This document shows, piece after piece, positions 3,851 to 62,027 of a stretch of 64,000 bases of DNA. Position numbers and translations under genes: made by a program. The notes under the pieces were generated by a model that searched no databases, was not told the origin of the DNA, and worked only from the letters and a program-made list of their open reading frames with translations. Origin of the DNA: Chiloscyllium plagiosum (lineage: Eukaryota); the NCBI RefSeq assembly GCF_004010195.1, contig NC_057753.1, positions 2,776,782-2,840,781 of the forward strand, given 5' to 3'. Position 1 is the stretch's first letter. Every line of letters starts with the position of its first letter.

Positions 3851-3856
3851 CTTAGA

Positions 3857-5228: not shown

Positions 5229-5267
5229 TGAAGTTTCTTCATACTCTGAAAGAAATTTCTCTTCATC

Positions 5268-6220: not shown

Positions 6221-6221
6221 A

Positions 6222-7075: not shown

Positions 7076-8031
7076 GTGACAACAGTACTAAAGAATGCTG
7101 TATCTTAAATAGCGTGAATGAAGTGTTGACGGCATCGTTTCAATGTTGTAGTATCATTGGAAGATTGGGTTTGAATGTCAGCGATGCCACGTTATTTTCA
7201 AAGTTGACATTTCTTTCACTTCTCTGCAGTACATTTCTGTGATTTAATTTGGTAGCCTGATAAGTAAAGGCAATGCAACCATAGACTGTTTCTGGGGTAA
7301 AATAACATATATTACTGAAGAGCGACAACAGTTAGTTTTATGGAGAGTAACACAGACGTTTTGGAGTACACAAGAGTGATTTAAAAAAACGTGGACCAGT
7401 AAGAGTAGTGTCTAAGAGGGAGACCAGGAGAGGGAGGTGAAAGCAGAACAATGCTGCATTTGCCAGTCGAAAGAGAAGCACAATGTTCCCCAAGCAGTAG
7501 TGATAAAGGAGTAACGTCACAGAAAGGAGAGGCCTTAGCAGTGGAGTGCAGAGGTGCTGCGGAACAGAGTAGAATAGAACAGAATACCCTTTATAGTCAT
7601 ATGTACTCCATTGTAGCGCTATTTTTAACACAGCTTTGAAAAGCATTCACAGTGTCTGCCTGATATTGGCACCAGGTTAGGTACAAGTACGGAGGTACAA
7701 ATCATGGCCACGAAAGAGCATTAGAAAGTAGTTGCATCATTTCATAGATTTTTTAAAAAGTTATCAATACGACATCGTTAGAGGATTGTTGTTGCAGTCA
7801 GGTTAAAAACATCAAATATAAAATGAATTGCACTAGCTCAGCACAGGGCCACAACATGTGGTCATTGCTCGCACCCGTCCCCAGTTCACAGTGGTCCACA
7901 CTCCACTGCAAGCTTACAGATCATCCTGCACAGGCACTTAGCTGCTCCAAGGTACGTTTGAGGACTGCATCCGCCACGTCAGTCTCCATTTGGTAGTCAC
8001 TGCCCGCGAGCTGCTCCTGGACTCACTGCCC
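7076..8031 (+). repeat. Local duplication unit, copy B (3'-truncated)
   Basis: Matches 3857-4804 and ends at ggactcactgccc. Confidence 0.95.
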
Positions 8032-9137
8032 TATTATGGAGAGCAACACAGACGTTTTGGAGTATACAGGAGTGATTTAAAAAAATGTGGACCAGTAAGA
8101 ATAGTGTCGAAGAGGGAGACCAGGAGAGGGAGGTGAAAGCAGAACAATGCTGCATTTGCCAGTCTAAATAGAAGCACAATGTTCCCCAAGCAGTAGTGAT
8201 AAAGGAGAAATGAGGGGCCTTAGTAGAGGAGTGCAGAGGTGCTGCGGAACAGATAGAATAGAACAGAATACCCTTTATAGTCATATGTACTCCAGGGTAG
8301 ACGCTATTTTTAACACAGCTTTGAAAAGCTATCACAGTGTCGGCCTGATATTGGCACCAGGTTAGGTACAAGTACGGAGGTACAAATCATGGCCACGAAA
8401 GAACATTAGAAAGCATTTGCATCATTTTACGGATTTTTAAAAAAGTTATCAATACGATATCGTTAGAGGATTGTTGTTGCAGTCAGGTTAAAAACATTAA
8501 GTATAAAATGAATTGCACTAGCTCAGCACAGGGCCACAACATGTGGTCATTGCTCGCACCCGTCCCCAGTCCACCGTGGTCCACACTCCACTGCAAGCCT
8601 ACAGATCATCCTGTACAGGCACTCAGCTGCTCCAAGGTACGTTTGAGGACTGCATCCCCCACGTCAGTCTCCATTTGGGAGTCACTGCCCGCGATCTGCT
8701 CCTGGACTCACTGCCCACGAGATGCTCCGGGACTCAATGTCGTGCGCTGCTCCAGGATTCAGAATAACAGTGCAAAAGTGCATATACTTTTCCTATGTAT
8801 AAAAGACTGAACAGACTAGTTCTCTGAAGAATGTTCACGGGAGTCAAAATATTAAGTTCGCTTTACCTCCATCGACGCTACGAGACATGCTGAGTTTCGC
8901 CAGCAAATTTTCTGTCTGTTTCTGAATTCCGGCTTGCACAGATTTTTTTTTTCTTTAGTGAAAACAGGAAGCTGCCAGCACAGAAATAGGTCATGTCACC
9001 CCATCTGCCGCTTTGAAAGAACTTTATGGATGTTTTCTCTGGAATAATGAATGTACCAACGTAAACACTCAGTCATTAAACAGATCACACCATCACCCTT
9101 CGCCCACCTCCGATCGCCTTATGGAGTCAGTAGTTTC
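8032..9137 (+). repeat. Local duplication unit, copy C (5'-truncated)
   Basis: Starts tattatggagagcaacacagacg (same as 4117) and matches copy A through cagtagtttc. Confidence 0.95.
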
Positions 9138-12906: not shown

Positions 12907-13243
12907 TTCCTACACTGTGGAAACAGGCTCTTCGGCCCAACAAATCCACACCAACCTTCAAAAGAGTATCTCACCCAGACTTATTACCCAACTACTGTAC
13001 ATTTCCCATGACTCGTGCACCTAACCTAAACATCCCTTAGCACTATGGGCAATTTAGCTTGGCCAATTCACCTAACCTGCATATCTTTGGACTATAGAAA
13101 CAAACTACAGCAAACGGAGGAACCCACGCAGAGACTAGGAGAATGTGCCAACTCCACAGAGTCAGTCGCCTGAGGCTGGAATCGAACGAGGGTCTCTGGT
13201 GGTGTGAGATAGCAGCATTAAATACTGAGTCACTGCATCACCC
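12907..13243 (-). mobile_element. HE1-like tRNA-derived SINE
   Basis: Reverse complement of the SINE at 27846, with head, central domain and cactgtggaaacaggc...ttcggccc tail. Confidence 0.85.
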
Positions 13244-18889: not shown

Positions 18890-21800
18890 TCAGGCAAGGA
18901 ATATGGAGAGAGAGGAGTTGAACTCGTGCCTACAAGGATAGTGCAGGAGGGAGGGTTTTGGATTCTTGGATAACTGGGGCTCTTTCTTGGGTAGGTAGGA
19001 TCTCTACAAGCAGGATCTCTTCATCTGAACCAGAGGGGTACCAATATCCTGGGGCAGGAATTCACTAAGGCTGTTGGGGTGGGTTTAAACTAATCCAGCA
19101 GGGGGATAGGAATCAAAATTGTAGTTCGTGTATAGAAGAGGTTGAGAGTAGGGAGGTCCAAAATCAAGTTTCAGGTATGCAATATGGCACCGGCAAGCAA
19201 GACGTTGGTTTGAAGTGTGTCTACTTCAACGCCAGGAGCATCCAGAATAAGGTCGGTGAAGTTGCAGCATGGGTTGGTACCTGGGACTTCGATGTTGTGG
19301 CCATTTCGGAGACATGGATAGAGCAGATACAGGAATGGTTGTTGCAGGTTCCAGGATTTAGATGTTTCAGTAAGAACAGAGAAAATGGTAAAAGAGAGGG
19401 AGATGTCGCATTGTTGGTCAAGGACAGTATTGCAGTTGCAGAAAGACTGTTAGGAGACTCATCAACTGATGTAGTATGGGCTGAGGTTAGAAACAAGAAA
19501 GGAGACGTCACCCTATTGGGAGTTTTCTATTGGCCTCTGAATAGTTCCAGAGATGTAGATAAAAGGATAGTAAAGATGATTCTCAACAGGAGTGAGAGAG
19601 ACAGAGTAGTTGTCATGGGGGACTTCAACTTTCCAAATATTGACTGGGAACATTATAGTACGACCACTACAGATGGGTCAGTTTTTGTCCAGTGTGTGCA
19701 GGAGGGCTTCCTGACACACGATGTAGACAGGCCAACAAGGGGTGAAGCCACATTAGATTTGGTACTGTGTAACGAGCCCGGCCAGGTGTTAGACTTGGAA
19801 GTAGGTGAGTACTTTGGTGATATCGATCACAATTCTATTATGTTTACTTTAGTGATAGAAAGGGATAGGTGAATACCAATGTGCAAGAGTTACAGCTGGT
19901 GGAAAGGCAATTACAACGCGATTAGGCAAGATTTAGGAAGCATAGGATCGGGAAGGAAACTGCAGGGGATGGGCACATTAGAAATGTGGAGCTTATTCAA
20001 GGAAAAGCTCCTGTGTGTCCAAGATAAGTATGTACCTGTCAGGCAGGGAGGCAGCTGTAGAGCGCGGGAGCCATGGTTTATGAAGGAAGTGGAATCTCTG
20101 GTCAAGAGGAAGGAGAAGACTTATGTTAGTATGAGATATGAAGGCTCAGTTAGGGCGCTTGAGGATTACAAGGTAACCAGTAAAGACCTAAAGAGAGAGC
20201 TCAGAAAAGCCAGGAGGAGACATGAGGCTCTGTTGGCGGATAGGATCAGGGTAAACCCCAAGGCTTTCTATAGGTATTTAAGGAATAAAGAATGATGAGA
20301 GTGAGATTAGGGCCAGTCAAGGATAGTAGCGGGAAGTTGTGTGTGGAGTCAGAGGAGATAGGGGAAGCACTAAATGAATATTTTTCGTCATTATTCACTC
20401 TAGGAAACGACAATGTTGTCGAGGTGAATACTGAGATACAGGATAATAGACTAGGTGGGATTAAGGTTCACAAGGAAGAGGTATGAGCAATCCTGCAGAG
20501 TATGAAAATAGATATATCCCCTGGGCCGGATGGGATTTATCCTAGGATCCTCTGGGAAGCCAGGGAGAAGATTTCCGAGCCTTTGGCATTGATCTTTAAA
20601 TCGTCATTGTCTCCAGGAATAGTGCCAGAAGACTGGAGGATAGCAAATGTTGTTCCCCTGTTCAAGAAGGGGAGTAAAGACAACCCTGGTAATTATCGAC
20701 CAGTGAGCCTTACTTCAGTTGTTGGGAAATTGTTGGAAAAGGTTATAAGTGATAGGATGTATAATCATCTCGAAAAGAATAATTTGATTAGGGATAGTCA
20801 GCACGGTTTTGTAAAGGGAGGTCGTGCCTTACGAACCTTCTTGAGTTCTTTGAGAAGGTGACCAAACAGGTAGATGAGAGTAAACCGGTTGATGTGGTGT
20901 ATACGGATACACCACATGGCGTTCGATAAGGTTTCCCGCAGTAAGCTATTATACAAAATGCGGTGGAATGGGATTGTGGGAGATATAGCAGTTTGGATCA
21001 ATAATTAGCTTGCTGAAAGAAGATAGAGAGTGGTGGTTGATGGGAAATGTTCATCCTGGAGACCAGTTAGTAGTGGTATACCGCAAGGATCGGTGTTGAG
21101 TTAACTGCTGTTCGTCATTTTTATAAATGACCTGGATGAGGGCGTAGAAGGGTGGGTTAGTAAATTCGCAGATGACACTAAGGTCTGTGGAGTTGTGGAT
21201 AGTGACGAAGGATGTTGTAGGTTACAGAGAGACAGAGATATAAGCTGCAGAACTGGGCTGAGAGGTGGCCAATGGTTTATAATGCGGACAAGTGTGAGGT
21301 GATACACTTTGGTTGGAGTAACCGGAATGCAAAGTATTGGGCTAATGGCAAGATTCTTGGTAGTGTAGATGAGCAGAGAGATCTCGTCGTCCAGGTACAC
21401 AGATCGTTGAAAGTTGCCACCCAGGTTGTCAGGGTTCTTAAGAAGGCATACAGTATTTTGGCATTTATTAATAAAGGGATCGAGTTCCGCAACCATGAGG
21501 TTATGCTGCAGCTGTACAAAACTCTTGTGCGACCGCAGTTGGTGTATTGTGTACAGTTCTGGTCACGACATAATAAGAAGGATGTGGAAGCTTTGGAAAT
21601 GGTGCAGAGGAGATTTACTAGGATGTTGCCTGGTATGGAAGGGAGGTCTTACGAGAAAAGGCTGAGGGACTTGAGGCTGTTTTCGTTGGAGAGAAGAAGG
21701 TTGAGAGGTGACTTTAATAGAGACATATAAGATTATCAGAGGGTTAGGTAGAGTGGACAAGGAGAGCCTTTTTCCAAGTATGGTGACGGCGAGCACGAGA

Positions 21801-22073
21801 GGGTATAGCTTTAAATTGAGAGGTGATGGATATAGGACAGATGTCAGAGGTAGTTGCTTTACTCAGAGAGTAGTAAGGGTATGGAATGCTTTGCCTGCAA
21901 CGGTAGTAGATTCGCCAACTACTACCATTTAAGTGCATTTAAGTCGTCATTGGACAAACATATGGACGTACATGGAATAGTGTAGGTTAGATGGGCTTCA
22001 GATTGGTCTGACTGGTCGGTGCAACATCGAGAGCCGAAGGGCCTGTGCTGCGCTGTAATGTTCTATGTTCTAT
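18890..22073 (+). mobile_element. CR1-clade (HER1-like) LINE with near-complete ORF2 (APE endonuclease + RT), 5'-truncated within ORF1; inactive
   Basis: Begins with the C-terminus of an esterase-type ORF1 (...REGFGFLDNWGSF...LHLNQRGTNILG). The endonuclease shows YFNARSI, ISETW, MGDFNFP, LDLV and DH. The RT shows PGPDGI, NYRPVSLTS, QHGF and KFADD. It has several stops and frameshifts and ends gccgaagggcctgt...ttctatgttctat. Confidence 0.95.
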
Positions 22074-26261: not shown

Positions 26262-27000
26262 TGTGGAATACAGGGTTAATGGTAGGGTTCTTAGTCAGGT
26301 GGAGGAACAGAGGGATCTTGGGGTCTATGTACATAGATCTTTGAAGGTTGCCACTCAGGTGGATAGAGTTTGTAAGAAGGCCTATGAGTATTATCGTTCA
26401 TTAGCAGAGGGATTGAATTCAAGAGTCGTGAAGTGATGTTCCAGCTGTACAGGCCTTTGGTTAGGCCACATTTGGAGTATTGTGTGCAGTTCTGGTCGCT
26501 TCACTTTAGGAAAGATGTGGAAGCTTTGGAGAGGGTGCAGAGTAGATTTACCAGGATGTTGCCTGGAATGGAGAATAGGTCGTACGAGGATAGGTTGAGA
26601 GTGCTAGACTTTTTCTCGTTGGAACGGCGAAGGATGAGGGGTGACTTGATAGAGGTTTTTAAGATGATCAGAGGAATAGATAGAGTAGACAGTCAGAAAC
26701 TTTTTCCCCGGGCACAACCGAGTGTTACAAGGGGACATAAATTTACGGTGAAGGGTGGAAGGTATAGGGGAGATGTCAGGGGTGGGTTCTTTACCCAGAG
26801 AGTGGTGGGGGCATGGAATGCGCTGCCTGTGGGAGTGGTAGAGGCAGAATCTTTGGTGACCTTTAAGCGGCAATTGGATAGGTACATGGATGGTTGTTTA
26901 AGCTAGGACAAATGTTCGGCACAAGATCGTGGGCCGAAGGGCCTGTTCTGTGCTGTATTGTTCTATGTTCTATGTTTATGTTCTATGTTCTATGTTCTAT
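26262..27000 (+). mobile_element. Young CR1 LINE 3' fragment
   Basis: Open ORF 26433-26906 (LYRPLVRPHLEYCVQFWS...FFTQRVVGAWNALP), followed by gggccgaagggcc and a (TTCTATG)n tail. Confidence 0.95.
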
Positions 27001-27685: not shown

Positions 27686-27845
27686 AACAAGCACACTTTT
27701 ATCTGCGGAGTTTCAGTGGTTCAGTTCGATGTGGTGGTTGTCAGGTGTTTTTTGAGGCAATAACTAGAATGAAGAAAATCTTGAGTGTTACATTACGTAC
27801 CTTATCAATTTCCTTACACTAAGTTCTATCAGAATGTGCTCATTT

Positions 27846-28121
27846 GGGCGGCACTGTGGCACAGTGGTTAGCACTGCTGCCTCGCAGCGCCAAAGATCCG
27901 GGTTCAATTCACGCCTCCGGCGACTGACTGTGTGGAGTTTGCACGTTCTCCCCGTGTCTGCGTGGGATTGCTCCGGTTTCCTCCCACAGTCCAAAGGTCA
28001 GGTGAATTGGCAACATGCTAAGTTGCCCGTAGTGTTAGTTAAGGGGTAAATGTAGAGGTATGGGTGGGTTGCGCTTCGGCGGGTCAGTGTGGACTTGTTG
28101 GGCCGAAGGGCCTGTTTCCAA
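27846..28121 (+). mobile_element. HE1-like tRNA-derived SINE
   Basis: A box TGGCACAGTGG (27857-27867), B box GGTTCAATTC (27901-27910), central tgtgtggagtttgcac.ttctccccgtgtctgcgtgg and a CR1-like tail gggccgaagggcctgtttcc. Confidence 0.92.
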
Positions 28122-30553: not shown

Positions 30554-30691
30554 ACCATATGCTTTCTTAACAACCCTATCCACTTGGCTGGCAATTTTGA
30601 GGGATCTATGTACTTCCACACTGCCAAGAATCCGGTCTTTAATCCTATATTCAGCATCGAGGTCAACCTTGAAAAATGCATTGCTTCACAT

Positions 30692-30983
30692 TTAGATTAG
30701 ATACGTACAGTGTGGAACTAGGCCCTTCGGCCCAACAAGTCCACACCGAACCACCAACGAGGTGCAACCCGCCCAGACCAATTCCCCTAGATTTACCCCT
30801 TCACCTAATACAACAGGTAATTTAGCATGGCCAATTCACCGAACCTGCTCATTTATGGACTGTGGGAGGAAACCCACCCACACAGGGAGAATGTGCAAAC
30901 TCCATGCAGACAGTTGCCGAGGCTGGAATTGAACCAAGTCTCTGGCGCTGTGAGGCAGCAGTTCTAACCATTGTGCCACCGCA
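30692..30983 (-). mobile_element. HE1-like SINE inserted in CR1 'A'
   Basis: Reverse complement of SINE head, body and tail, with a gattagattag tail. Confidence 0.9.
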
Positions 30984-33900
30984 TCCAGGTTGAACGCTTT
31001 TGGCCATTTCTCAACCCAGCTCTGCAACCTGTCTATGTCGCGCTGCAGCTTGCATAAGCCTTCTATACTATCGATGACAACTCCAACCTTAGTGTCATCT
31101 GCAAATTTACTAACCCACCCCTCAACCTTCTCATCCAAGAAATTTATAAAAACTACAAAGAACAGAGGTCCAAGAACAGAGCCCTGCGTGACCCCACTCA
31201 ACACTGTCCTACAGGCAGAATACTTTCCATCTGCAACCACTCTCTGCCTTCTGTCAGCCAACCAATTCTGAATCCAGATAGCCAAATCTCCCTGTATCCC
31301 ATGCTTCCTGACTTTATGAATGAGCCTACCATGGGGAACCGTATCAAATACCTTTCTAAAGTCCATAGACATCACATTCACTGCTCGACCGTCGTCATCC
31401 AGTCTTGACACCTCCTCAAAGAAATCAATAAGATTTGTGAGGCATGACCTGCCCCTCACAAAGCCATGCTGACTGCCTTTAATCACACTACGCTTTGCCA
31501 AATTGTCATAAATCCTATCCCTCGGAATTCTTTCCAAATATTGCTGATCACAGATGAAAGACTGACTGGTCTGTAATTGCCAGGGATTTCCCTGTTACCC
31601 TTCTTGAAAATAGGAACAACATTCGCCTCCTTCCAATCCTCTGGCACGACTCCTGTGGAGAGTCAGGAGGCAAATATCCTCGCCAGCTCTCCTTTCTCGT
31701 TTCCCGAAGCAGCCTAGGATAAAGTCTGGTCTGACCCTGAAGACTTATTATTCTTAATGTTTTCCAAAATTTCCAAAATTTGTAAAATGTCATGATTGTG
31801 TTAAGATTAACAGAGACTCATAAAACAAGTGTGAAACAGGTTATTAACTTAAAAACAGGTCGCAAGTATACTGTCTTCATGTGGAATGCCGTTTGAATTA
31901 TTTTGGTGCTATCCTGCTCTGATACATAATTATCACTATTTCCTCGCTTTATTCTTTCTGGTACAGCAAATTTGGCAATGGGAGCGATCCTTTACCGAAT
32001 ATGTGGTCTGTCTAGATGTATAATTAACTACGTCGTGTCCATGGCGCTAGCAGATCTGGTCATCATTGTCACTGTCATTATAAATCGATTTTCTGGTATT
32101 TATTTCCCATTCACTTTCCTATCCATCATACCAATTTTCTGTCTCTGTGCAATCCTAATTTATGCTCTCATAGATAGTTCTGCCTGGTTAACAGTTGCTT
32201 TCACCTTTGATTGGTTTGTGGCCATTTGTTGCCAGCAGCTGAAAATTAGATACTGTACGGAGAAGATTGGAACGTGAGCTAATGGGAGTGTTTGCACACT
32301 GAGCTGTCGAAGAAATGCGTTCTTGTATTTTATATTTGAACCTTTGTATATAATTGATAATGTACCGTGTTTCTGTGTTGTTAAACAACTATTTAGTTCA
32401 ACACCAGCACGGATTGCATATGATTTGAGGCGGTCTATTTTCGCTCCCTGTCTTCCATTCACTCTGATTGTACTGCGCAACGTTCTGACTGTAAGACATA
32501 TTCTAGCAGCCAACAGAGCCCGTAAAAGACTCTGGACCCAGACTAATGCAGAGAATCAGAGTGACCCAGAGATGGAGAAGCGGAAAAAATCCATCACCTT
32601 ACCTTTTGGCGTTTCAGGTAATTTTACCTTGCTATATTCGGTACTTTTTATAGCAGTACTGTATTCTAGAATTGCAAAAGTTGCTTATTATTCACGTTCT
32701 GATTACGGTGCCTCATCCTTTATCCTGGAAAAAAACGGGTGTATGCTTCAGTTTCTGAATTTCTGCATCAATCCCTTTATCTACGCTGGAACTCAGAGTA
32801 AATTGAGAGATGAGTTGAAGAATGGTTTGCAATATCCTTTGAGATTTTTTGCTAAGTTGTAAAAGTCTCCAACTCTTTGAGAAAATTAAATGAAACATGG
32901 ATGTTACATGTCGCCCACACATGCCTTCAACATGTCTTGTCATCCGTGCCCTCAAACTGAAAGTTCATTCGTGTTTGAACATTTGTGAAATATGTACGCA
33001 GTGCTTCATTAATTAATTTACAACGTCATTTTGCAAAGAGAAACAGCAGCGAATAAATTTGCAACTGTATAGGTCCAGGCCTGATGATATTCAAAACCCT
33101 CCCTTTTTTTTGTTTGTAATCAGTAAGTGAAGGGTCATGCAGGCACAAGCTATGCTGCTGTGCATTGTTCAAAAGCCAGCAAGGTCAGAAAACATGATGC
33201 ATGCCCATTGTTCTTCTGTAAACATCATCCTGTTCCACCAATAACCTGGGTTAGCCTCTGGCCCGCTTAATTTATGCGTTTCTACTTGGAGCTTTGTCAC
33301 ATATTCACGCAATTCCTGAGCAATCAAACTTCATGCACAGTTCCATCGCGTACTACCTTTGGGATTATACCAAAGCCACAGCCTCAGAAATGGAATGTGG
33401 CTATTCTCTCACATTCTCTTTTGAGCGTCAATGATCATAACTATCAAAGCCATGGTCAGAATTTTTGCATCTGCGCTGTGTCATGTCACATTCGTCATGA
33501 ATTTGATGCGCCTGCATGGTCAAAGGTTAGCATCTTCGTAAATAGAGGGTGTAAACTATAATGAAGATGTTCCTTAATGTTTGAGTTGTTACACCTTGGC
33601 AAAATTCCGTCTTCTTGTTAATCTTGCTGATCATCTGTGTGATTGGTTGAGACTGTTGAAATGGCAAAATTTCCATGGATAGATCATGACCTGGACTTTG
33701 ACATGTCTCCACATGTGAACATTATATTATTCAATTGGTGGAGGGTTTCTTCATCTCAAAGATAGCCTATTCTCCTCCTCAGGATTCATGGTCTTGCTCT
33801 CCAAATGCAGTTGCCCACTCAGCATTCATTTATCCCACTTCCTACCCCTCATCAGTTTTGTACACATGGCGTTCATTCTTTACTTTCTTCATGAGCTATG

Positions 33901-34392
33901 ATCCCTGCATGTGAATTCATTTCATTGGTCCTCGCACTGATGTTGAGTTTGTTGAAAGGTAGCCGCTCACGGTTCATGCATGTGATCAATCGACGATGGA
34001 TGTACATCAGTGACCTCTAAATGACCAATATTCTGAACAGAGAGACGAACATGCTTCTGACAGCCAATCTGATGACTGCCCACGACCTGTGGTATCTGCT
34101 TCACCTTTGCTTTTGTCTAAGGTTGCTTGTTCATATTGTCTACAGCAGAAAACATTGTAGAAAGCTTCCCCTCATTTATCGTCACTCAGATCTGCAGTGA
34201 CATGTTTAGAGGAAGCAAATTAGATACTTCATGGTTTATATGCTGGCCTTTCTCGTTTTATTGTAAATACTGCCAAAATGTTCCTGAGGGAGAAAAATGT
34301 CACTACTCCTCACTCAGAAATTAGTCCTTTGAAAATAAAGCCAGTTGTCTTTGCAACATTGCAGAAACCATAACTTCGGCGGGGCTTCCCGT

Positions 34393-34692
34393 GGGATGGT
34401 AGCACAATGGTTAGCACTGCTGCCTCACAGCGACAGGGACCTGGGTTCAATTCCCGTCTCGGGAAATTGTCTGTGTGGAGTTTGCACATTCTCCCCGTGT
34501 CTGCGTGGGTGTCCTCCGTGTACTCCGGTTTCCTCCCACAGTCCAACAACGTGCAGGTTAGGTGAATTGGCCATGCTAAATTGCCCGTAGTGTTTGGTGT
34601 AGGGGAATGCGTCTGGATGGGTGGCACTTCGGAGGGTTGGTATGGAATTGTTGGGCCGAAGGGCCTGTTTCCACATTGTAAGTAATCTTATT
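34393..34692 (+). mobile_element. HE1-like tRNA-derived SINE
   Basis: ggttagcactgctgcctcacagcg..gggttcaattcc..gtgaattggccatgctaaattgccc..gggccgaagggcctgtttcc. Confidence 0.92.
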
Positions 34693-36382
34693 TATAAAAA
34701 AAACACGACATCTCATTAACCTGTTCAGTCGCCTGGACGACAATTGAATAACAAGATTTGTGAACAGTGTTATTCATATTTAAGTCAGGCGACTTCCCTT
34801 GGACTTAAACATCAAAACCATGGAATAAATAACACTGCAAGTTACTTGGTCAAGGAGTAACCCACTCAGAAGTGAGAGCTGGATAATTGTTATTTCAATA
34901 TCAATACTCCTTGCTTCTGGACCACAAGTTAATAATATTGTCGACATCAGTACGATGTTAAGAAATCTGTCAATGCAGTCTTGAACTACATTTCCTATTT
35001 GCTGACTCATAATGTAATAGGATCACCAACTTAAAAGAGAGCTAAGTCATAGATTCAAATCTTCTACAAATGGCATGAGGTGCATTGAGGGCAGCTGGTA
35101 GTTCAACATACTTACAAATGCATCCAAGATCCAATAGAATCAATTTTATTTTACCACACTAAAAGCTGTCATTTTCCAACATTACCGGACAGATTAGCAT
35201 TGTAGAATAAGGAAACAGCTTTGATAAGTAAAGAAGAGTTGGAGCATGTTGTAGCGATATGGCAGTGGAATCAAGCGGCTGATAATTGAGCCTTTTGGTT
35301 CCTTATTTTCGAGGTAAATATCAATTTGTCGCCATATTGGTACAGACGGTGCATGGCGGACACAACGGATTCCAATATGGGAAGTAGAAATTAAGATTCT
35401 CTGACACGCTATGAGTTCATGAACATTCAGCAGTGGAATGTTCACGAGAAACCTCATGCAACCCTCCGTAGCAGCAAAGAGACTGAAAGGATGTGAATGT
35501 GGTGATACCACTGAGAGGCCTATTTCGTGCAGAAAGAAATTCAATCATTCCTTTCAGTTGTCGAATTAGTGTCATTTGACCCAATACTCCAAGTTTAGGG
35601 CGTGATATAAGAGTTCCTCAAAACTAATAAATCCGCTCAAAGTTTGTTGCATTGAAGGAACTTCGCCCTTTTCAATTGCAGCACAGTTTTATATGTTCCA
35701 CCCAAGTTGGGAACCACATTGCACCAACAGTATAGATCTAATATTCAACTGCAATGATTTTAACCACTCTTGCAACGTGCTGACCTTTCATACATTCATT
35801 CCTGTAGCGACATGTCAAATTGTGCTATGTCTGGTTCTAAGTCCCCACATTTGTTTCTAATGGCTGCTGAAGCTTCAAGACAGCCACAGGGGGAGTGATC
35901 CAAACCGAGCCAGCTGAGATTTAACTCGCTATTTTCCGTTATTTTTCTCTGTATATTAAATGCTCACAAATCTATACCTCTCTCTCATTAGATATGTTTC
36001 GCCTAATGTAATGTATTTCTATGTGTATGTTATCTGCATTTGTTTTGCAGTGAGACTTACAGTTGCACATTCTTTTGTGACTGGACATTTGCTGCTACGC
36101 TCCCGAAGGGATATCATTTTATTTTGGATTTTAACAAACAAGGAGATGGAGGCATTGCAAAGAGGGGGTTCCTTTATTAATAGGCGAGTGATGTTTATAT
36201 TTGTTATGTCAAAATTGGAAACTGGATAAATTCTGCGACAAACATTATCATTATTATTGTTTCCCGAAAGAAACTGAGAGCTGGATAGTAACTTGCAACA
36301 TGGCGTCAATAACATCTTTTTCAATATCATCAGAAAACAGGATTCGGCGCTCCTTCCGGTATACAAGAGGTCCAAAATTATA

Positions 36383-46916: not shown

Positions 46917-49117
46917 ATGCACGGATTGCCAACGGGTCTGGTGTTTGTCATTTACTATCCAGTTAATGCAATTGTTGGTGTTCCAGGTAAAAGTTAATTA
47001 ACGTTTATGAGTATTTTGTTTCACTTTTACAACATCTCTCATTTAGTAAAACTGCATTCGCCAGCATGCCAGTATTTATTGCCTGCTTTAATAGGAAGCT
47101 GTTCCTTTTAGTTCCTTCACCATTCTTTTTATCTGAAATAACTTCTCGCCCTTTATGCCATAATCTTAGACACATTTAGAGCATTAATTTTGAGAGTTAA
47201 GATTAATTATTTATTCTATTTGCCAGCATTACTTAATTCCATTATGATTGCAATTCCTTCTTAAACGTGTATCTTTGCTTTTGATGGTAATATCTTAAAC
47301 CATGCAAATTCATACACACCACTTTCTCCTAATATTGTAAATTTTTATCCATTACATAAATAAGATTTTTGAACTTCTTGAACTTTAATATTGCTATCAA
47401 GCCGAAGTCTCTTCCTATCGTGTACTTGGCGTCTTGGTGAAATTCTTAATCTCGTATCTAACTGACGTTTACACAAAATTTCAACATGCTCATCATTGTG
47501 CACGTCTCGTTTCTTTTTTGTGTTTCCCAGCTCTACTAACTGTTGTTAATTCAGTGTGTGCTATTGAATTCGATGTTCCTCAGTTTAATGGAGAAACAAC
47601 AATGCTGATATGCTATAGACGAACTGAAGGCCAACACCAGTTGTTTAAATTTCACGGCTATTGTAAAAATATTGACGGATTAAGCTGCAGAAATTACTTA
47701 TCAAGAGCGCCGGGTTTCTTTGATTTTCAATGCAATTTACATTCCTTCTGAGAAAGACAAGGATGTTTATAAATTTTAGCCCGACATCTCATACGAAATG
47801 CATTGCATTGATTATTTCTTGCATTCTTTATTCTTAATGGATAGACATTATAATGCCAGAGCTCTATTGAATTCCAAATATAACAGTATTTGTTTTGTCT
47901 AAGTCAACGTTTATGCAGCAAATGAGACCATATTTGCTTCTATTTCCACTCTTTCAGGCAAAAAAATTTAAATCTTATGGATCACTAATGGATTTAGTGA
48001 GAATATTTCAGCCAAATTCGCAAATGAAATTCTGATTTCAAAGTGTGTTATGATGCGATTTTCTCCACTGAGATGCAAAAATTTCCAAACTTTTTAAAAA
48101 ACTGCTGTTGCTTCATCAGCATTGTTTCCAACATTTCCTGTTTTTATTGCCTTCTTTTGCTTACCCTTCCCTAGATTTATCTTTTGCAGCTAATTTGGCA
48201 GTGAATCTTCTCCTGTCTTGGAAACGATGTGGTCTATCCAGATGTATTGCTCTCTAAATGATGTCTATGGCAGTAACAGATTTCCTAGTCATGTTTACTG
48301 GTGTAATACTAAATCGTATTGTATATGATTACTTGTCAATGAGTTTCCTCTCCATCACTCCAATACTTGCTTTCAGTTTTTCTAATATATGCAATCAGAG
48401 ATTCTTCTGTATGGGTTACTGTCACTTTTACTTTGGATTGATTTATAGTAATTTGTTGCCAGAAGCTGAAAAACACACATTGCACCGGGAAAACAGTAGT
48501 TTTTGTTATAAGCTTTGTCTGTGCTCTGAACTGTGTTCGAAAATCCCTGTGTACTTTACCTGTGAACCTGCCTTTCTAATTGATAATGTTCCTTGGTACT
48601 GCAACACCAGAATAACCTTTTATTCGTCACCTGCTTGGATTGCATATGATAGTCTAATGGTGATTTTAACCGCTTGTCTTCCATTCATTATTATTTTGTT
48701 ACTCAATGTTTTAACCGTCAGACATATTCTAGCAGCTGGTGTTGCCCGCAGACGACTCTGGTCACATAAGAATGCATAGGACCAGACTGACCCAGAAATG
48801 GAGAAGAGGAGAAACTCCATAGTTTTACTTTTCTGTGTCTTGGGAAGTTTCATCCTGTCCTATTCATTGATTTTTATAACGTTCCTCTATGTTCAAATTG
48901 CAAGTATTACTTATTCGTCAGCTCAAATTCCACCGAATCCAATGTTATTCTGGAGGAAAGCAGTTATATGCTTCAGCTCTTGAGTTCTTGCGTTAACCCG
49001 TTCATTTATGCAGGTACCCAGAACAAATTTAGAAAGGAGTTAATGAATGGTATGAAGTACTTTTTGAATCTGATTGTTACGTTATTTAAGTGCAGGCAAC
49101 ATTCAAACCCAAGCTAA
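46917..49117 (+). pseudogene. Class A orphan GPCR (GPR139/GPR142-like) pseudogene, copy 2; exon 1 46917-46986, exon 2 48190-49117
   Basis: Exon 1 encodes MHGLPTGLVFVIYYPVNAIVGVP and ends at CCAG|gtaaaa; the acceptor is ttttgcag|CTAAT. Exon 2 reads ANLAVNLLLSWKRCGLSRC...SMAVTDF...NVLTVRHILAA...DPEMEKRRNSI...CVNPFIYAGTQNKFRKEL. Stops are at 48255-57 (TAA), 48439-41 (TGA) and 48777-79 (TAG); frameshifts lie near 48370, 48540 and 48920. Confidence 0.92.
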
Positions 49118-50251
49118 ATTAAAATCTATATTATGTTTTGTTTTGTTTTTGACATTTCTGAAAAGATGTTGATGTCCCAAAACATCGTCGATTCATGTGA
49201 GACCCTCATGCACTTTATAATTCTAATAAGATGTTCAAAACTGTGAGTGTTCTCTTTTGATTTTCTCCTCACAATCAAGTTCTTGTCATTTTCAAGAGAG
49301 TCCGGGGCAGCAACATGGGAGTTAAAGTTTCAAAACTCTCATCTGTGTGAGCATATCATTTTAAATTGTATAAAGAAAAGAAAACAAAATCTTCTTTATG
49401 TATCTGTTGAACACTTTGAAATTAAAGGTAGACAACAAAATGCGACTACAGAATCTTGATGCATTATATCACGAAAGAATTACAACAGCGAAGATGTGAA
49501 ACAAAAACATTAATTCCTGAAGAAACACAGCAAGTCTAGAAACACCAGTGGAGAGCAGGAGTTAATATTTCAAGCTCAGTGAAAGTTCTGAAGAAGGATC
49601 ACTGGACTCGAAACATTAACTCTGCTTTCTCTCCTCATCCGTAGATGTTCATTTATATTGTTAGCATCTCAGCACCATTTGTCTGTTCTCCAGCATAACT
49701 GGAAAAAATAAACTAACACGGTTAATCTGCTTATTTTGCCATACATTTTTTTTCACAATGGCCAAAGAAGTCGTCATTCCGGTTGTCATCAAATCGAGAC
49801 TTAGCAATATCCCTCTTTTAATGAATCCCAAATATAAGTCCCAAATTAGTTACATATTATCATAGATATTGGAAGTCTGTGAAAGAATACTTGCTACACA
49901 CATCGATGAAAACTACAATGCTAATAGGTTTCTGGAATGTTCTCAGTGATTATTCCCTCTCCCCAACTTCTTGAGTGCTCGGAACGTGCCTGGAAAGGGG
50001 AACACATATGATTCATTCCTGCTTCCGTTTGAACGTACGTGATTAACAATGTGTTACTCGAAGTCCTGTTTAGGCATTTCAAAGAGTAGTTCAGAGCCAG
50101 ATACATTTCTTCAGATATTGAATTCCATACAGGCAGATGGTGATTAATTTGTTTTCTAAAGTACATTGGCAAACTAGATTTTGAAAGACAATCCAGAAGA
50201 TAGAATTTTATCATTATATGTGATGACATTTTTTTTCTATATAACTTACTT

Positions 50252-50500
50252 AAGATTAGATTACTTACAGTGTGGAAACAGGCCCCCAACAAGTCCACAA
50301 CGACCCTCCGAAGAGCAACCCACCCAGACTCATTCCCCTACATTTATCCCTCACCTAACACTACGGGCAATTTAGCATTGCCAAATCACTTAACCTGCAC
50401 TTTTGTTTTGGACTGTGGGAGGAAACCCACGCACACACGGGGAAAATGAGGCAGGAATTAAACTGTGAGGCAGCAGTGCTAACCACTGTGCCACCGAGCC
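50252..50500 (-). mobile_element. HE1-like SINE with internal deletions
   Basis: agattagattacttacagtgtggaaacaggccc...gtgaggcagcagtgctaaccactgtgccacc. Confidence 0.88.
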
Positions 50501-51244: not shown

Positions 51245-51547
51245 ATTTAGATTAGATTACAGTGTGGAAACAGGCCCTTCGGCCCAACAAGTTCACACCG
51301 ACCCGAAACCCACCCATACCCCTACATTTACCCCTTACCTAACATTACAGGAAATTTAGTATGGCCAATTCACCTGATCCTGCACATCTTTGGATGGTGG
51401 GAGGAAACTGGAGCACCCGAAGGAAACCCACGCAGACACGGGGAAAACGTGCAAACTCCACACAGTCAGTCGCCTGAGTCGGGAATTGAACCCGGGTCTC
51501 TGGCGCTGTGAGGCAGCAGTGCTAACCACTGTGCCACCGTGCCACCC
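51245..51547 (-). mobile_element. HE1-like tRNA-derived SINE, full length
   Basis: Complete reverse-complement head (gtgctaaccactgtgccaccgtgcc; gggaattgaacccggg), body and tail. Confidence 0.93.
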
Positions 51548-53371
51548 ACAAATAATGGCCCAGTTTCAGGCGGACGTAGAATTGTGAAGAAGAGTCAGAT
51601 CAAACATGTAACATTCACTCTGTTTCTCTCTCTGCAGATACTGCCAGACATCCTGAGTCTCTCCAGCATTCTCTGTATTTGTTTCAGGTTTCCATCATCT
51701 GCAGTATTTTGATCATCTCAACTGAGGGACAGCCCTGTTTCTCCACACAGTTTATTGTACGTTTAGTTAAAACAACTAAACCCAAACTGCCCCAGCCAAC
51801 TGCAGCTTCTTTAATGTCTCATTTCTCAGGAGGTAAAGAAGTTAAAGTGTCAGTAAAGGGGAAGCAGTGAAAATAAACCAATGGCTGTTCCCTTCTCAGG
51901 GAGGATATGAGTGGCTGGATTTTCTAAATGTGGCTCAGAGAGGTTTATTTCAGGAGTGATCATAATTACTTATTTACTGCAAGTTCCTCACAATCAGTCA
52001 CTGAAACTTCGAGAATTCACACATTTGCTGCAACCCTGTGAATGGTCAAAACACTTTTTAAAAAACACACTGAGCCAAAGCCCTCAACCTTATAACAACT
52101 GCCATTTATGTAGCAGTGTGTACTCACTAAAATTAAGGCAAAACCTTTCAAAAGTGAGGAAATGAACAAATGTTAACACCAAACAAGAAATGTGACCTCA
52201 AGACAATAAATCAAAACATTTGACCAAAAAACTGAAATTGCTGGAGAAACTCAGCAGGTCTGGCAGTGTCTGTGGGGAGAGAAATAGAGTTAATGTTTTC
52301 AGTTCAGTGTGACTCTATTTCAGAAACTTGATCAAATGGTTTGGTCTGAAGCAGAGTCGGAAAGCGAATGGTGGAGAAATGGGATGGGTGAAACTAGAGA
52401 ATAAACAAAAATAGATGCTGGGATCACATTGTGTGATTAATTCACGGCCAGTCATTGTGGTCTCAGCTGGAGATCACCAAACAGAACACAGGATTAGTTA
52501 AATACAGAGCTAGAAATTACTTCTCAGCAGCCTGTGAGAGTGTGCTGTACCACAGGGTGGGATTTGATCCCTGACCTTGAGGTCTGCAGTTAGGGGCACT
52601 GCCAGTGTGCCATAGCACCCTGACCCTGACATTGGTTACACGTCCCACGGGCAGTAGCTTCTCTCAAACAAATGGCTTGAACCATTTGTCATTTCTGTTG
52701 CTGTTCATTCCAAGGCAGTTGTTGATAACACATGAATACACAGTGGGTTTGGGTGATGTCGGGGGGGGGAAAACTTTGTCACCTCAAATGTGCACAAGCT
52801 GCCAGCAGCTCCTGGTCAGACTTTTCAATTAATTAGCTCAAGAACACAGACACACAGTTTAATGGTCAGGTAATTAGATTTTTTATTGAGAAACTGGTTA
52901 TATCAGTGAAATCAAGCACAATTTAAAATATCGGCTGAACAGACTCTGTCAGTGATGATTGACAAAGAAATAAATGAGAAATAAACACAACCAGACCACA
53001 GGCAATAACTGATGTTCCCTATTGTTCATGATGTAATTTGCCAGTCTCTGACTGCAACATTTGAAAGCCATATTAGGTCAAAATGTGGAAGCTGATGAGT
53101 GGATTCGCTCAAACATGATGGAATAAGAACAAATCTCACATGGAGTCACATGGGGAGATATTAGTCTGGGTGAGATTCCACAATGGCAGGTGTGATGAAG
53201 AGGAATTTCATCAGCCAGAGGGTAATGAATCTGTGGAACTCAATACACAGAGGGCTGTAGAGACCAACATATTGAATGTATTTAAGACCGAGACAGACAG
53301 ATTCTGGATCAGTAAGGGGATCAAAGTTTATTTGGAGTGGCCAGGAGAATAAGGTTGAGAAACATGAGATG

Positions 53372-53669
53372 ACATACAGGGTGGAAGCAGGCCCTTCAGC
53401 CCAACAAGTCCACATCGACCCACGAAGCGCAACCCACCCAGACCCATTCCCCTATATTTACCTTTTCACCTAACACTATGGGCAATTTAGCATGGCCAAT
53501 TCACATAACCTGCACATTTTTGGACAGTGGGAGGAAACCAGGGCACCCGGAGGAAACCCACGCAGACACGGGGAGAATGTGCAAACTCCACACAGTCAGT
53601 CGTCTGAGGCGGGAATTGAACCCGGTCTCTGGCGCTGTGAGGCAGCAGTGCTAACCACCGTGCCGCCCA
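53372..53669 (-). mobile_element. HE1-like tRNA-derived SINE, full length
   Basis: Same structure as 51245-51547. It sits inside the 3' UTR of an old plus-strand CR1 fragment (~53125-53745). Confidence 0.92.
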
Positions 53670-56349: not shown

Positions 56350-57015
56350 ATTAGGTTGTGCAGTGATGTCCAACATTTTCGAGACACAAGCGACAGGCAA
56401 TGACCATCTACCACAAAAGTAAGTGTAACTTATTCTCCTTGTCATTCAGTGGAATTGCCATGACTGAAAGCACTATTATCAACTTGGTGGAGGTAATCGG
56501 GGACATGTGTTAAATACTCATTCAGAAGCTGGGAATTCTGCGGAAGGTTTTACATCACCTAACTTCCCAACGACTCCCAAGATTTAAAAGGCTCAACTCA
56601 GGAGTAAGGTGATATACCCGCTGCTTGTGAGGTTCGGTGCAACTCTAACAACACTCAAAAAGTTTAAATTTTCAGGACACGACAGCCCATTTGATTGGAA
56701 ACCCATCCAATATTGAAACTTCCTGGCAGCAGTCAAAACTATTCATACTTTACAGTAAAGTAACTCACTAAGGTCCTCCCGCAGTATTTTTTAAAGTATC
56801 AAATTCAACACCTCGATAGAGCAGAAGATTTATAAGAGCAGCACCAGATGCAAGTTCCCCGCAAGACATGAACTATACTTCTTTCGAAATTTAGCAGCAT
56901 TCATTTTCAGTAGCTACACCAAAATCTTGATAGGCCCTTCCTTACAGCTCTGTGGATTTACCTCCACCCCAGAACTATACACCTTCAAATAAAACATTAT
57001 TGCCTCCTTCTGAAG
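56350..57015 (+). mobile_element. Old fragment of the LINE family at 57965-61161 (post-RT region)
   Basis: Parallels 60400-61080, e.g. cacaag..caggcaatgaccatc, gccatgactgaaagcactattatcaac and acaacactcaa. Confidence 0.6.
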
Positions 57016-57017
57016 GA

Positions 57018-57527
57018 CTTTGGTTAGGCCACATTTGGAGTACTGTGTGCAGTTTTGGTCGCCTCACTTTAGGAAAGATGTGGAAGCTTTGGAGAGGGTG
57101 CAGAGAAGATTTACCAGGATGTTGCCTGGAATGAAGAATAGGTCGAACGAGGATAGGTTGAGCATGCGAGGCCTTTTCTCATTGGAACGGAGAAGGATGG
57201 GGGGTGACTTGATAGAGGTGTATAAGATGATCAGGGGAATAGATAGAGTAGACAATCAGAAACTTTTTCCCCGGGTACAACAGAGTGTTACAAGGGGACA
57301 TAAATTTAAGGTGAAGGGTGGAAGGTATAGGGGAGATGCCAGGGGTGGGTTCTTTACCCAGAGACTGGTGGGGGCATGGAATGCGCTGCCTGTAGGAGTG
57401 GTAGAGTCAGAATCTTTGGTGACCTTTAAGCGGCAATTGGATAGGTACATGGATAGGTGCTTAAGCTAGGACAAATGTTCGGCACAACATCATGGGCCGA
57501 AGGGCCTGTTCTGTGCTGTACTGTTCT
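57018..57527 (+). mobile_element. Young CR1 LINE 3' fragment, same subfamily as 26262-27000
   Basis: Open ORF 57020-57469, nearly identical to 26433-26906. Confidence 0.95.
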
Positions 57528-57742
57528 TAACCTAAACATCGTTGAGCACTATAGGCAATTTAGCATGGTCAATTCACCTAACCTTCACATCTTTTTGGTT
57601 GTGGGAGGAAGACAGCCCCCAGATAAAGCCCACACAACAACGAAGATAATGTGCAAACTCCACACAGACAGTCGCCCGATACTGGGATCAAATCTGGGTC
57701 TCTGCCACTTTGTGGCAGCAGTGCTAATCAATGAGCCACCGT
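57528..57742 (-). mobile_element. HE1-like SINE, older and partial
   Basis: ggcaatttagcatggtcaattcacctaacc..tgtgcaaactccacacagacagtcgccc..ggcagcagtgctaa. Confidence 0.8.
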
Positions 57743-57964
57743 GTCTTACGTTTGGTCAACTGCTGCCGAGTCAGTTCTCTATCCATCAAGCTTGTATACC
57801 CTGGAACCCATGCGATTTCACTTTCCCGATTCATCCCATTCAAAACCTTATCGATAGCCTTTCTGAATATCCTTGGTTTTCACATTAAAAATAAACTGAA
57901 GTTAACATATATTTACTGCAGAGTTTATACTTCCTCCAAAATAACTAGACGGTGCAACTAGAAA

Positions 57965-60900
57965 TTGGAGATGGTGATGGACTCATAGTATTATCGCTTG
58001 ACTATTAATCTAGATACCCAGAATCATGCTCTGTAGACTTGGGTTCGAATTCTGCCATGGCATGAATAAAGACCTTAAATTTAGAGTCGACTGATGACCA
58101 TTAAACTGTTGTCAACTGTTAGAACCCGTTAGGTTCACTAATGCCCTTGAGGGAAGGAAATCTTCCATCTTTACCTTGTCTGGACGGCATGTGACTCCAG
58201 ACACACAGCAATGTGGTTGACTCTCAACTGCCGTCTGAAATGGCCTAGCAAGCCACTCAGACACGCCAATCGCGAGAAAGTCACAATGAAGAAATGAACT
58301 AGGCGGACCACCTGGCATCACCCTTGAAAACGGAAAAGACAATGATAAAACAGCCTTGTCGACGATGCAAAGTCTTCCTTATCAACGTCTTGGTGCTAAT
58401 GCAGAAATTGGGAGAGCTGCCTCACAGACTAGTCGAGCAACAGCCTGACATACTCATTCTTAGAGAGTCATACCTGGCAGATAACACTCCAAACACCAAT
58501 ATTACCATCCCTGGATATGTCCTGTCGCAGTAGCAGGACAGACTCAGCAGAGGTGGTAGCACAATGCTGTGCAGTGTGGAGGGAGTTGTCCCGGGAGTCT
58601 TTGACATCATCTCCAGACCCCGTGAAGTCTCAGCTTAAATGTGAGCAAGGAAAGTTCTTACAGGTTACCACATACCGACCTCATTCAGCTCATGAATTAG
58701 TACTCTTCCATGTTGAACGGCACTTGGAGGAACTACTGACGGTGGCAAGGGCACAGAATGTACTCTGGATGGGAGATTTCAATCTCCACCACCAAGAGTG
58801 GCTCGGAATCAGCATTACTGACCGAGCTGGCCGGGTCGGCATATAACTGCTAAACTGGGTCTGCGGCAGTTGGTGAAGGAACTAACAAGAGGAAAAAAAA
58901 ACATATATGACCTCATTCTTACAAATCTGCCTGTTGCTGAAGCATGTCCAAGACCGCACAGGTAAAACTTGACACTGCCTCTTCTTGTTCAGACCAAGTC
59001 CCGCCATCACATTGAGAACAAAATCCATCGTTTTGTGTGGCATATCACCTTGCTGAATGGAGCACACTTTAAACCGATTTAGTAGCTCAAGACTGGGCAT
59101 CCATGAGGCGCTGTGGGCCATCACCAGCAGCAGAACTGTACTCCAGAACAATCTGCAAACTCATGGTCTGGCATATTCCCCCACTCAGCAATTACCATCA
59201 AGCCAGTGGATCAACCCCAGTTCAATGGAGAGTGCAGCATGGCATGCCAGCAGCAGCACCAGGCATACCTAACAATCAAGTGTCAACATGATGAAGCGAC
59301 CAACCTGGAGTAATTGCATGCCAAACAGTAGAAAGAGTAAGTCATAGACAGAGCAAAGCAATCCCACAAACAACGGATCAGATCTAAGCTCTGCAGTTTT
59401 CCCACATCAACTCATGAATGTTAGTGGCCAATTAAAAAACTCAGGAGGAAGCTTCACAAATATCCTAATCTTCCATGATGGAGAGGCTTAGCATATCAGT
59501 GCAAAGGGTAAGGCTGATGCATTCACAACAGTCTTCAGACAGGATGTCCAGTGGATGATGCGTCTCGGGTTGCTCCAGTCGTCCACTGCATCACAGTACC
59601 AGTCTCCAGCCAATTCGATTCACTCCACATGATAATAGAAACAGCTGGAAGCACTGGATACTACAAAGATAATGGACCCTGCTAACATTCCAGCAATAGT
59701 ACTGAAGACATGTGCTCCAAAACGTGCCGCTCCCCAAGCCAAGCTCTTCCAGCAGTTACAGCACTGGATTCTATCCGACAATGTGGAAAATTGCACAAGT
59801 ATGTTCTGCACACAAGAAGCAGGAGAAATCCAACCTGGCCAATTATCGCTCAATCAGTCTACTCCATTATCAGTAAAGCGATAGAAGGGGCCATCGTCCG
59901 TGCTATCAAGTAACACATACTCAGCAGCAACCTGTTCAGTATTGCCCAGTTTGCTTTTCGCCAGAGTCACTGAGCACCTGATCTCTTTTCAGCCTTGGTT
60001 CAAGCATGGACAAAAGAGCTGAACTGCGGAGGTGGGTTGAGTGGCAGCATTTAATATCAGGGACACATTTGACCGAGTATGGCATCAAGGCACCCTTGAA
60101 AACCTGGAATAAATGGGTTTCGGGGGGCGGATAGTCCGCTGGTGATAATCATGCTTGGCACGATGGAAGATTGTTGTGCTTGTGCATGGTCAATCATCTC
60201 AGCTCCAGGATATCACAGCAAGTGTCCCTCCACTTAGTGTCCTCGGCCCAACAATCTTAAGTTGCTTCATTAATGACTTTCCCTCTGTCATAACGTCAGA
60301 AATGAGCATGTTGGCCCGTGATTGCATAGTTTTAACCACCATTTCTTACTCCTCAGACACTGAAGCAGACTGTGCTCAAATGCAACAAGATCTGGACAAT
60401 ATCCAGGCTTGGGTCCACAAGTGGCAAATAACATTCGTGTCACACAAAGGCCGCGCAATTAGCATCACCAATAAGAGGCACTCTGACAACCACCCCTTGA
60501 CGTTCAACGGTATTACCATCACTGAATCCTCCACTATCAACATGCTTGGGGTTACCATTAAGCAGGGACTGAAATGGACTCACCACTTCACCACAGTGGC
60601 TAATAGACCATGTGGGAAACGAGGGATACTGTAGCGAGTAACTCACCTCCAGAAACCCCAAATTCTATCTACCGCAAGTCAGAAGTGTAATGGAATACTC
60701 CCCACATGCCTGGATCGTGCGGCTCAAACAACACTCAAGAACAAAGTAACCCGCTTGATTGGTACCACATCTGCAAACATTCAATCCGTCCACCACCGAT
60801 GCTCAGGAGCAAATATATGTCCTATCTACGAGATGCACTGCCGAAATTCACCAAAGATCCTTAGGCATTATCTTCCAGGGCCAAAGATACTTCCATCATG

Positions 60901-61161
60901 AAGGACAAGAGCAGCAGATACTTGGGAACACCACTACCTACAAGATACTCCACCCACAGTTGGATATGTACTGCCGTTCCTTCACAGACTTAAGAAGAAA
61001 ATCATGGAATTCACTACGCACTGCTATTGTGGTTCAACATACAGCAAGTGCACTTAGCGAATCAAGAAGGCAGCTCACCACTATCTTTTTCAAGACAAAT
61101 ATGGATGGGCTATAAATGCTGACCAGCCTGACAAGCCCAAGTCACGCAAATGAATAAAAAA
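57965..61161 (+). mobile_element. Apparently full-length, decayed single-ORF LINE (APE endonuclease + RT; CR1/L2-group-like) with a tRNA-like/SINE-like 5' head
   Basis: The head (57965-58062) has a B box GGTTCGAATTC at 58042-58052. The endonuclease shows KVFLINV..L..KLGEL..QQPDILILRESYL, TTYRPH, WMGDFNLHH and DLILTN. The RT shows GPANIP-like, FDRVWH, SVLGPT and INDFPS. The element ends tgaataaaaaa. Confidence 0.8.
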
Positions 61162-61775
61162 CAATCTGTCACTGCATTCAAACTGAGTACTGTGTTTATC
61201 CATTGTGATTGCATTCAGAATTTTCTAATATTGGCAATTAGGTAAGCCGTTTAGACCAGTGTTAATGCAATGATTTTTTGATCTTTGTAAAGTATCTGCT
61301 TCCACATTAGCCATTAGATGTTGATAGCAATATGCCACATTTATATGGTAAGTTAATACTTGACAACAGTAAATTCGTTCATTTGTGTAGAAGTAATATT
61401 GTTGTTTACTACAATCAATGGAACGTTTTTTCTTTATTGAGAACATTCCCGAACAATCATTCTTGGATTGTATCAGCAATGTTAAGTCTTGGTAACATTT
61501 AAAGAGTCGATCCCTGTGCACAAAAAAAAATGAAATGAATACAGAGGGGAAAAATAAACTACCGTAAATTCACAGGGTATAGACTATGTACATAAGGTAC
61601 CTGGATGAATGTTTCGTGGAACAAACTATGATAGATACATATACAGACAAAAAAAACGTGAAAGCGATTGAGACAGACATGTAGAGACTAAGAGTTACAG
61701 ATATTTGCATGAAGAACTTCTATTACCCATTTGGGAACTTTTGGCTCTGAAATAGTTTAAGTGACTTTTTGCTGC

Positions 61776-62027
61776 CCTGCAATGGTGGTTCGATGGTTAG
61801 TATTGCTGCTTCATCGCGCAAGGGTCCCAGGTTCGATTCCATGCCTCCGGCAACTGTCTGCGTGGAGTTTGCATATTGTCAGCGTGGGCTTTCTACCACA
61901 GTCCAAAGATATGCCGGTCAGGCGAATTGACCATGTTAAATTGGGTCTGGGTGGGTTACTCTGCGGAGTGTCGGTGTGGACTTGTTGGGCCGAAGGGCCT
62001 GTTTCCACACAGCAGGGAATCTAATCT
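61776..62027 (+). mobile_element. HE1-like SINE, diverged
   Basis: ggttagtattgctgc..caggttcgattcc..gtggagtttgca..gggccgaagggcctgtttccacac..aatctaatct. Confidence 0.85.

Follow-up and report, generated by a model that had tools for sequence, protein, structure and literature searches.

A tRNA-like 5′ head on a decayed Zenon-type LINE of sharks and rays, and a short form that shares both of its ends

The window analyzed here, a stretch of 64,000 nucleotides of Chiloscyllium plagiosum DNA, contains at positions 57967-61161 (+ strand) a decayed single-ORF APE-RT element, as delimited by a protein profile and by the depth of aligned contigs. Judged by its sequence, this element is a decayed member of the elasmobranch Zenon (CR1 group), which is old and very common in sharks and rays. 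Its 5′ end is made up of a tRNA-like head and a conserved central block. These two form the 5′ end of the family as a whole, in sharks and in a ray, where a constant linker ties them to the ORF. We have very little doubt that this layout (tRNA-like head, block, linker and single ORF) is real as a structure. The features of the window copy are the following.

57967..58065 (+): tRNA-like head; contig depth rises here from flank level, and the 5′ end is placed within ~3 nt
57978..57988 (+): A box, decayed, with 3 mismatches to the type-2 consensus
57997..58013 (+): anticodon-like arm, 4 of 5 stem pairs formed, loop of 7 nt
58018..58038 (+): second arm, which probably duplicates the anticodon arm in tandem (21 nt)
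58042..58052 (+): B box, with 1 mismatch
58066..58131 (+): A+T-rich spacer, which differs between species
58132..58260 (+): conserved central block of 129 nt, common to the long and short forms
58261..58353 (+): linker of about 94 nt, in the long form only; present in the consensi
58354..58990 (+, end approximate): APE endonuclease remnant (PF14529, E=3e-5; PF03372, E=8e-4; both below the curated cut-off)
59751..60560 (+): reverse transcriptase remnant (PF00078, E=0.005, below the cut-off)
60561..61102 (+): C-terminal part of the single ORF, the end of which is extrapolated to ~61100-61120
61089..61161 (+): 3′ tail, common to the short form; AATAAA (61153-61158), then an A run

Contig depth places the start of the multi-copy part near 57964-57967 and its stop near 61161. 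The motifs that the original prediction had named are each present where it placed them, and its view of the copy as dead is borne out by five frame changes and in-frame stops across the APE-RT match. The profile used for this match, built from 19 APE-RT relative proteins (959 positions), covers 58354-60949 in collinear order, entering at its position 17 and leaving at position 909, with E=3e-62 over 60038-60949, and the RT catalytic motif is decayed at about 60308-60331. Since the match begins 94 nt past the block, and 390 nt past the 5′ end, there is no room for an ORF1, as had been claimed. The nearest proteins are unnamed single-ORF APE-RT proteins at about 30% identity, protein matches to the ordinary CR1 of the window are short ones only, and a search with the RT fragment returned none of 382 candidates. 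We note that a Heterodontus protein labelled CWC25 (P0001) opens with Zenon endonuclease and RT-side fragments that are 59-71% identical to the window copy; it is probably a gene-model artefact or an exonised repeat.

Family membership and the head-endonuclease junction

The first 400 bases of the element match the elasmobranch Zenon consensi published in the supplement of PMC13343379 (Genome Biol Evol 2026). These consensi are seven sequences of 2886-3314 characters from five species (CarCar, HypSab, RhiTyp, ScyCan and SquAca-1, -2 and -3), and over the first 400 nt compared, 7/7 start with an A box, an anticodon-like arm, a B box, the 129-nt block and the linker. Such a head is present in 0/3 of the hagfish and coelacanth Zenon consensi, again over the first 400 nt. 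The nearest consensus, RhiTyp_Zenon-1, is identical to the window copy at 116/129 positions of the block (58132-58260) and at 41/49 positions of 57973-58021 (both by eye), so that identity to consensus above 80% is observed on these two stretches of the first 400 nt only. The element likewise shows a single ORF in which APE is followed by RT with no ORF1, and an A-rich 3′ end, AATAAA plus an A run at 61153-61161, which is short in this old copy. Its length is also that of the elasmobranch Zenon, 3.2-3.3 kb (PMC13343379), and there is no structural difference between the two, the window copy having simply decayed. All Zenon elements lack an ORF1, and every one has a poly-A end, according to the same paper; a single ORF is thus ordinary for the clade, and the premise that a missing ORF1 is unusual does not stand.

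In PMC13343379, copies are tabled for six families (59 to 2313), which we have taken as those above 80% of consensus length, and the copy cell of the seventh family, garbled as a date, reads as 6/3750. The best ORF2 in the published families is given there as 324-747 aa, versus about 960 for relatives, so that no whole autonomous copy is on record, and by the paper's account repeat databases contained no formal deposit of an elasmobranch Zenon before. Within the available text the words "tRNA" and "promoter" have 0 uses and "SINE" occurs in a reference only, the head and the short form being undiscussed, and the available supplement leaves the head unremarked. A literature search with most subscription journals outside its scope gave no description of a tRNA-headed shark Zenon, while a motif search of paper full texts returned only two plant papers, both unrelated, and no match in the hagfish supplement. 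The tRNA-headed architecture apparently sits, unremarked, in published consensus sequences.

The original prediction held that the junction of head and endonuclease belongs to the family and should be given up if it proved unique to this locus. The junction is found in 7/7 elasmobranch Zenon consensi and in bridging contigs of 3/3 DNA runs, which rules out a junction unique to the locus. For the latter analysis, public contigs of three organisms were aligned to 57800-61300 at 80% likeness (53851, 50829 and 49481 records). The resulting depth, which here is not copy number, ranges over 24-83 for the bin of the 5′ flank, exceeds 1100 for that of the head, amounts to 470,000-670,000 for that of the block (the top bin in 3/3 DNA runs) and to 440-1350 for that of the linker; over the ORF, most values lie between thousands and hundreds of thousands. 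Among the 15 joints listed of 3116, the block (58232, 58260) is joined to the endonuclease (58395, 58405) by 6, 15 and 13 contigs in the three organisms; in these bridging joints, taken at 80% likeness, the stretch between is marked "not known", and 2/3 of the organism A rows have under 31 letters on the shorter side. One 201-nt contig of organism A covers 58234-58433 with 7 differences, and mid-linker depth (58296) is 136, 138 and 718 in the three organisms, versus ~9-50 from single contigs.

Being 23-43% identical to the query, and from hosts of unknown identity, the metagenome loci with distantly related elements are only a loose outgroup. The A/B box test covered 36 of 80 such loci, the other 44 being without an ORF start or 300 nt upstream, and an A/B pair was found in 1/36, versus 0.47 expected. 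This lone positive (L047) shows no tRNA-like arm by eye, and its B-box-like word comes after a G run. The head and tail gave no real match against the 80 metagenome loci (best E 0.19). The head seems, from these comparisons, to be special to the elasmobranch lineage.

The tRNA-like head, the block and the linker

Of the seven elasmobranch consensi, 7/7 have a flawless A box near the start, and their B box has no mismatch or almost none (by eye), so that the arrangement of SINE2-type elements, with A and B boxes at tRNA-like positions of the 5′ end, is decayed in the window copy and intact in the consensi. Both boxes are kept across consensi while the spacer between them differs among species, although SINE copies could inflate the box conservation seen there. 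The anticodon-loop variant of the window copy is common to RhiTyp_Zenon-1. A duplication of the anticodon arm accounts better for what had been described as a long variable arm: the duplicate matches at 17/21 positions in SquAca_Zenon-1 (by eye), and in the window copy the self-match at offset 21 is 10/20, the best among offsets 17-25. A class II variable arm was rejected, and the extra arm, which is shortened in the ray consensus, probably arose from the anticodon arm by tandem duplication of 21 nt.

The window copy by itself carries little of this signal. B-box-like words number 11 in the window versus 6.5 expected, with 9/100 shuffles as high, and so are not above chance when taken alone. 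On the window copy, ARAGORN finds 0 tRNA genes, and none with relaxed thresholds either, Rfam gives 4 matches at E<=10 with tRNA not among them, and the fold of the head has z=+0.59, with no tRNA signal. As no tRNA model scores this decayed copy, the tRNA reading rests on the published family consensi.

The block motif has 0 matches in viral, metagenome and prokaryote contigs. Its likening to a Meta domain has to be withdrawn, as the 17-nt core of the Meta consensus gives 0 matches with 3 mismatches allowed, and alignment by eye to the Meta consensus in the available supplement of PMC7245038 stops at ~11 of the first 14 letters; the 66-bp Meta domain that follows the head directly in MetaSINEs is thus not found here. 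The UCON3 and Deu bodies were also considered and rejected by eye. SlmI-type SINEs, the other likeness that had been suggested, are described in the available part of PMC3747384 as a tRNA-Leu head, an SlmI body and an RSg-1 tail.

As to possible starts of translation, the block holds a two-codon AUG frame at 58240-58248 and the linker a conserved AUG at 58294, which in the ray consensus is out of frame with the endonuclease, there being no in-frame AUG ahead of the endonuclease in that consensus (by eye). An ORF start by stop-codon read-through from the AUG frame at 58240 was considered and rejected: it is in frame in the consensi of 3/5 species and broken in RhiTyp and SquAca-1 (by eye).

Short forms and transcription

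A matching short SINE had been predicted, and it exists in 3/3 DNA runs, as joints of head and block to the 3′ tail. Contigs that join the block straight to the 3′ tail are far more numerous than those that join it to the endonuclease, and joints from 58231-58260 to 61059-61114 occur in all three organisms (among the 15 joints listed of 3116). In addition, the sequence of loose ends behind 58224, 58232, 58237 and 58260, for each of which the listed rows count ~400-630 contigs, corresponds to the 3′ tail of the element itself, with 25/30 letters behind 58237 agreeing with 61094-61123 (by eye). The joints and loose ends together define two 5′ breakpoints, 58237 (to about 61094) and 58260 (to about 61089), and establish that short head-block-tail elements exist. 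Their tail begins at about the last ORF codons (ORF end extrapolated to 61100-61120), and, with both LINE ends kept and the ORF missing, they have the make-up of a SIDE.

The explanation of the whole that we favor, and to which we give a reasonable though far from complete degree of belief, is a headed Zenon ancestor with the A and B boxes as its internal promoter, deletions of the ORF giving rise to SINEs. Type-2 Pol III promoters are internal and are thus carried along with each copy, and LINE proteins bind the 3′ tail of an RNA and copy it at the target (target-primed reverse transcription). Before the split of sharks and rays, template switching in reverse transcription would have put a SINE-type head and body in place of the original 5′ UTR of a Zenon ancestor, and the A and B boxes would then have been the internal promoter in every new copy. 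Bound to the 3′ tail, the ORF protein would carry out target-primed reverse transcription of the RNA, and internal ORF deletions would yield ready-made SINEs outnumbering their parent. Template switching is reported to add small-RNA heads in PMC4494074, PMC5786205 and PMC4824008, and Zenon to yield internally deleted forms repeatedly in PMC6740152.

The order of events could also be the reverse: an older, ordinary SINE (tRNA head, body and Zenon tail) would have given its head and body to Zenon by one template switch, the present short copies being descendants of that SINE. Such an origin would accord with short forms far outnumbering long ones (block depth of 470,000-670,000 versus 440-1350 for the linker, although depth is not copy number), with the 58237 form, which a small deletion could have produced from the 58260 form, and with the literature, in which exchange of tails and modules is the usual history of SINEs (PMC4824008, PMC5786205) and Zenon tails serve SINEs in butterflies and bivalves (PMC6685494, PMC11481361). 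It requires, however, a headless Zenon partner, of which there is none among the 7 elasmobranch consensi, and the short-form tail starts inside the ORF end. We therefore consider a SINE-first origin a serious possibility, with a chance of perhaps one in three.

Returning to the headed ancestor, its internal promoter would most simply be used by Pol III, a step on which we are evenly divided. Pol III terminates at T runs, and the window copy has 6 sense T4+ runs versus 7.2 (mononucleotide) and 5.5 (dinucleotide) expected; being no fewer than in shuffles, they show that Pol III terminators are not depleted in this copy. The first T4+ run lies 1066 nt in (not significant), the single T5 is at the ORF end, and the first 400 nt of the 7 elasmobranch consensi have no T4 run (by eye); in so decayed a copy, such runs may be new rather than ancestral. 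RNA made by Pol III moreover carries no cap, and at 3.2 kb the transcript would be a long one for this polymerase, so that translation of the full element would need an extra, cap-independent step. That the LINE has been transcribed end to end by Pol III throughout shark and ray history and translated without a cap, and that one of the commonest short repeats in these genomes is this LINE minus its ORF, a SINE arisen from a LINE in a single step, appears to us rather unlikely.

The same structure could instead be transcribed in its long form by Pol II, starting in the block or linker or reading through from the flanks, with the head only marking or protecting the 5′ end, or kept for the sake of the short form. 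The undepleted T4+ runs of the window copy and the AATAAA immediately ahead of the A run agree with this, as do the available accounts of U1/U2 heads on Tx1 LINEs, which lack an internal promoter and are proposed to rely on flanking transcription (PMC4494074), and of lepidopteran Zenon, which works without any Pol III promoter (PMC6740152). Yet the complete head stands exactly at the 5′ end in 7/7 consensi with both boxes kept, and the ~94-nt linker shows no other evident promoter, and we regard transcription by Pol II as conceivable but short of probable.

Chance neighbouring of a SINE and a 5′-truncated LINE at one locus, or an assembly artefact, which could be read from the want of a convincing target-site duplication around the element (the best candidate, 6/7 letters and A-rich, was dropped) and of a second Zenon copy within the 64-kb window, has a negligible probability in view of the 7 published consensi, covering 5 species, that share this head, block and linker, and of the 201-nt contig of organism A (58234-58433) and several further block-endonuclease contigs in three organisms. 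Contigs joining flank and head in both organisms B and C, plus tail-flank contigs, show that the insertion predates the split of these two organisms. We note that the 3′ flank (61165-61300) has 3-5 contigs per run, versus 1-2 for the 5′ flank, and may be a low-copy repeat or a duplicated segment.

The headed Zenon has several precedents. In crocodilians, Tx1-Mar LINEs (Tx1-2_Crp, Tx1-2B_Crp, Tx1-4_AMi and Tx1-11_Crp; PMC4494074) share a small-RNA head with their partner SINEU; their U1/U2 heads contain no internal promoter, and the elements are target-specific members of the Tx1 clade (PMC4494074), whereas the shark Zenon head has A and B boxes and its short form also shares the 3′ tail. RTE-1_DAn and elements related to it (Repbase; PMC5786205) are LINEs with a tRNA-like sequence that matches many SINE2 families, and differ from the shark Zenon in belonging to the RTE clade. 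In Lepidoptera, the Persaeus SIDE consists of the 5′ and 3′ ends of Zenon, has arisen several times by internal deletion and, unlike the shark short form, lacks both homology to tRNA and a Pol III promoter (PMC6740152). MetaSINEs (PMC4824008) and the shark SINEs HE1, SacSINE1 and CmiSINE (PMC3747384, PMC5499810) also combine a tRNA head with a conserved body and a LINE-type tail, but the Meta consensus does not match the shark Zenon block, and in known shark SINEs the body is V, Deu or CORE and the tail HER1 or L2 (PMC3747384, PMC5499810). None of these SINEs is described, in the available parts of the three papers, as sharing its head with a LINE.

Promoter and coding capacity separate LINEs from SINEs, and the headed Zenon blurs that line, as a widespread LINE with a complete type-2 Pol III-like head and, by the published table, hundreds to thousands of long copies per genome. 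Deletion of the ORF would offer a one-step route from LINE to SINE, and the family lends itself as a natural test for the ability of Pol III to produce a coding retrotransposon RNA of 3.2 kb. In practical terms, repeat libraries will score the abundant short form as a Zenon LINE. What limits the surprise is that LINEs headed by a small RNA were known before and that the sequence itself has been made public.

Other repeats in the window

The Zenon copy has no DNA likeness to the ordinary CR1 copies of the window or to its other SINE family. This other tRNA-headed SINE, which we take to be HE1/V-SINE-like, is present as nine copies or fragments (12911-13239, 27845-28120, 30690-30985, 34391-34694, 50250-50446, 51245-51548, 53361-53667, 57528-57743 and 61782-62027), which do not match the Zenon head and explain most B-box matches in the window. 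A long ordinary CR1-type ORF2 remnant at 19195-22073 (+), with many shorter relatives across the window, belongs to a family separate from Zenon. The CR1 3′ fragments at 57014-57527 and 26451-26964 are 94% identical to each other and much younger than the Zenon copy adjoining one of them. At 32001-32842 and 48227-49067 lies an 850-bp repeat pair of 66% identity with no LINE-profile match. Around an assembly gap (5268-5767) within 3856-9137 there are duplicated stretches of 0.7-1.1 kb, 93-96% identical and lying nearly in tandem, which reflect either a recent duplication or a mis-assembly.
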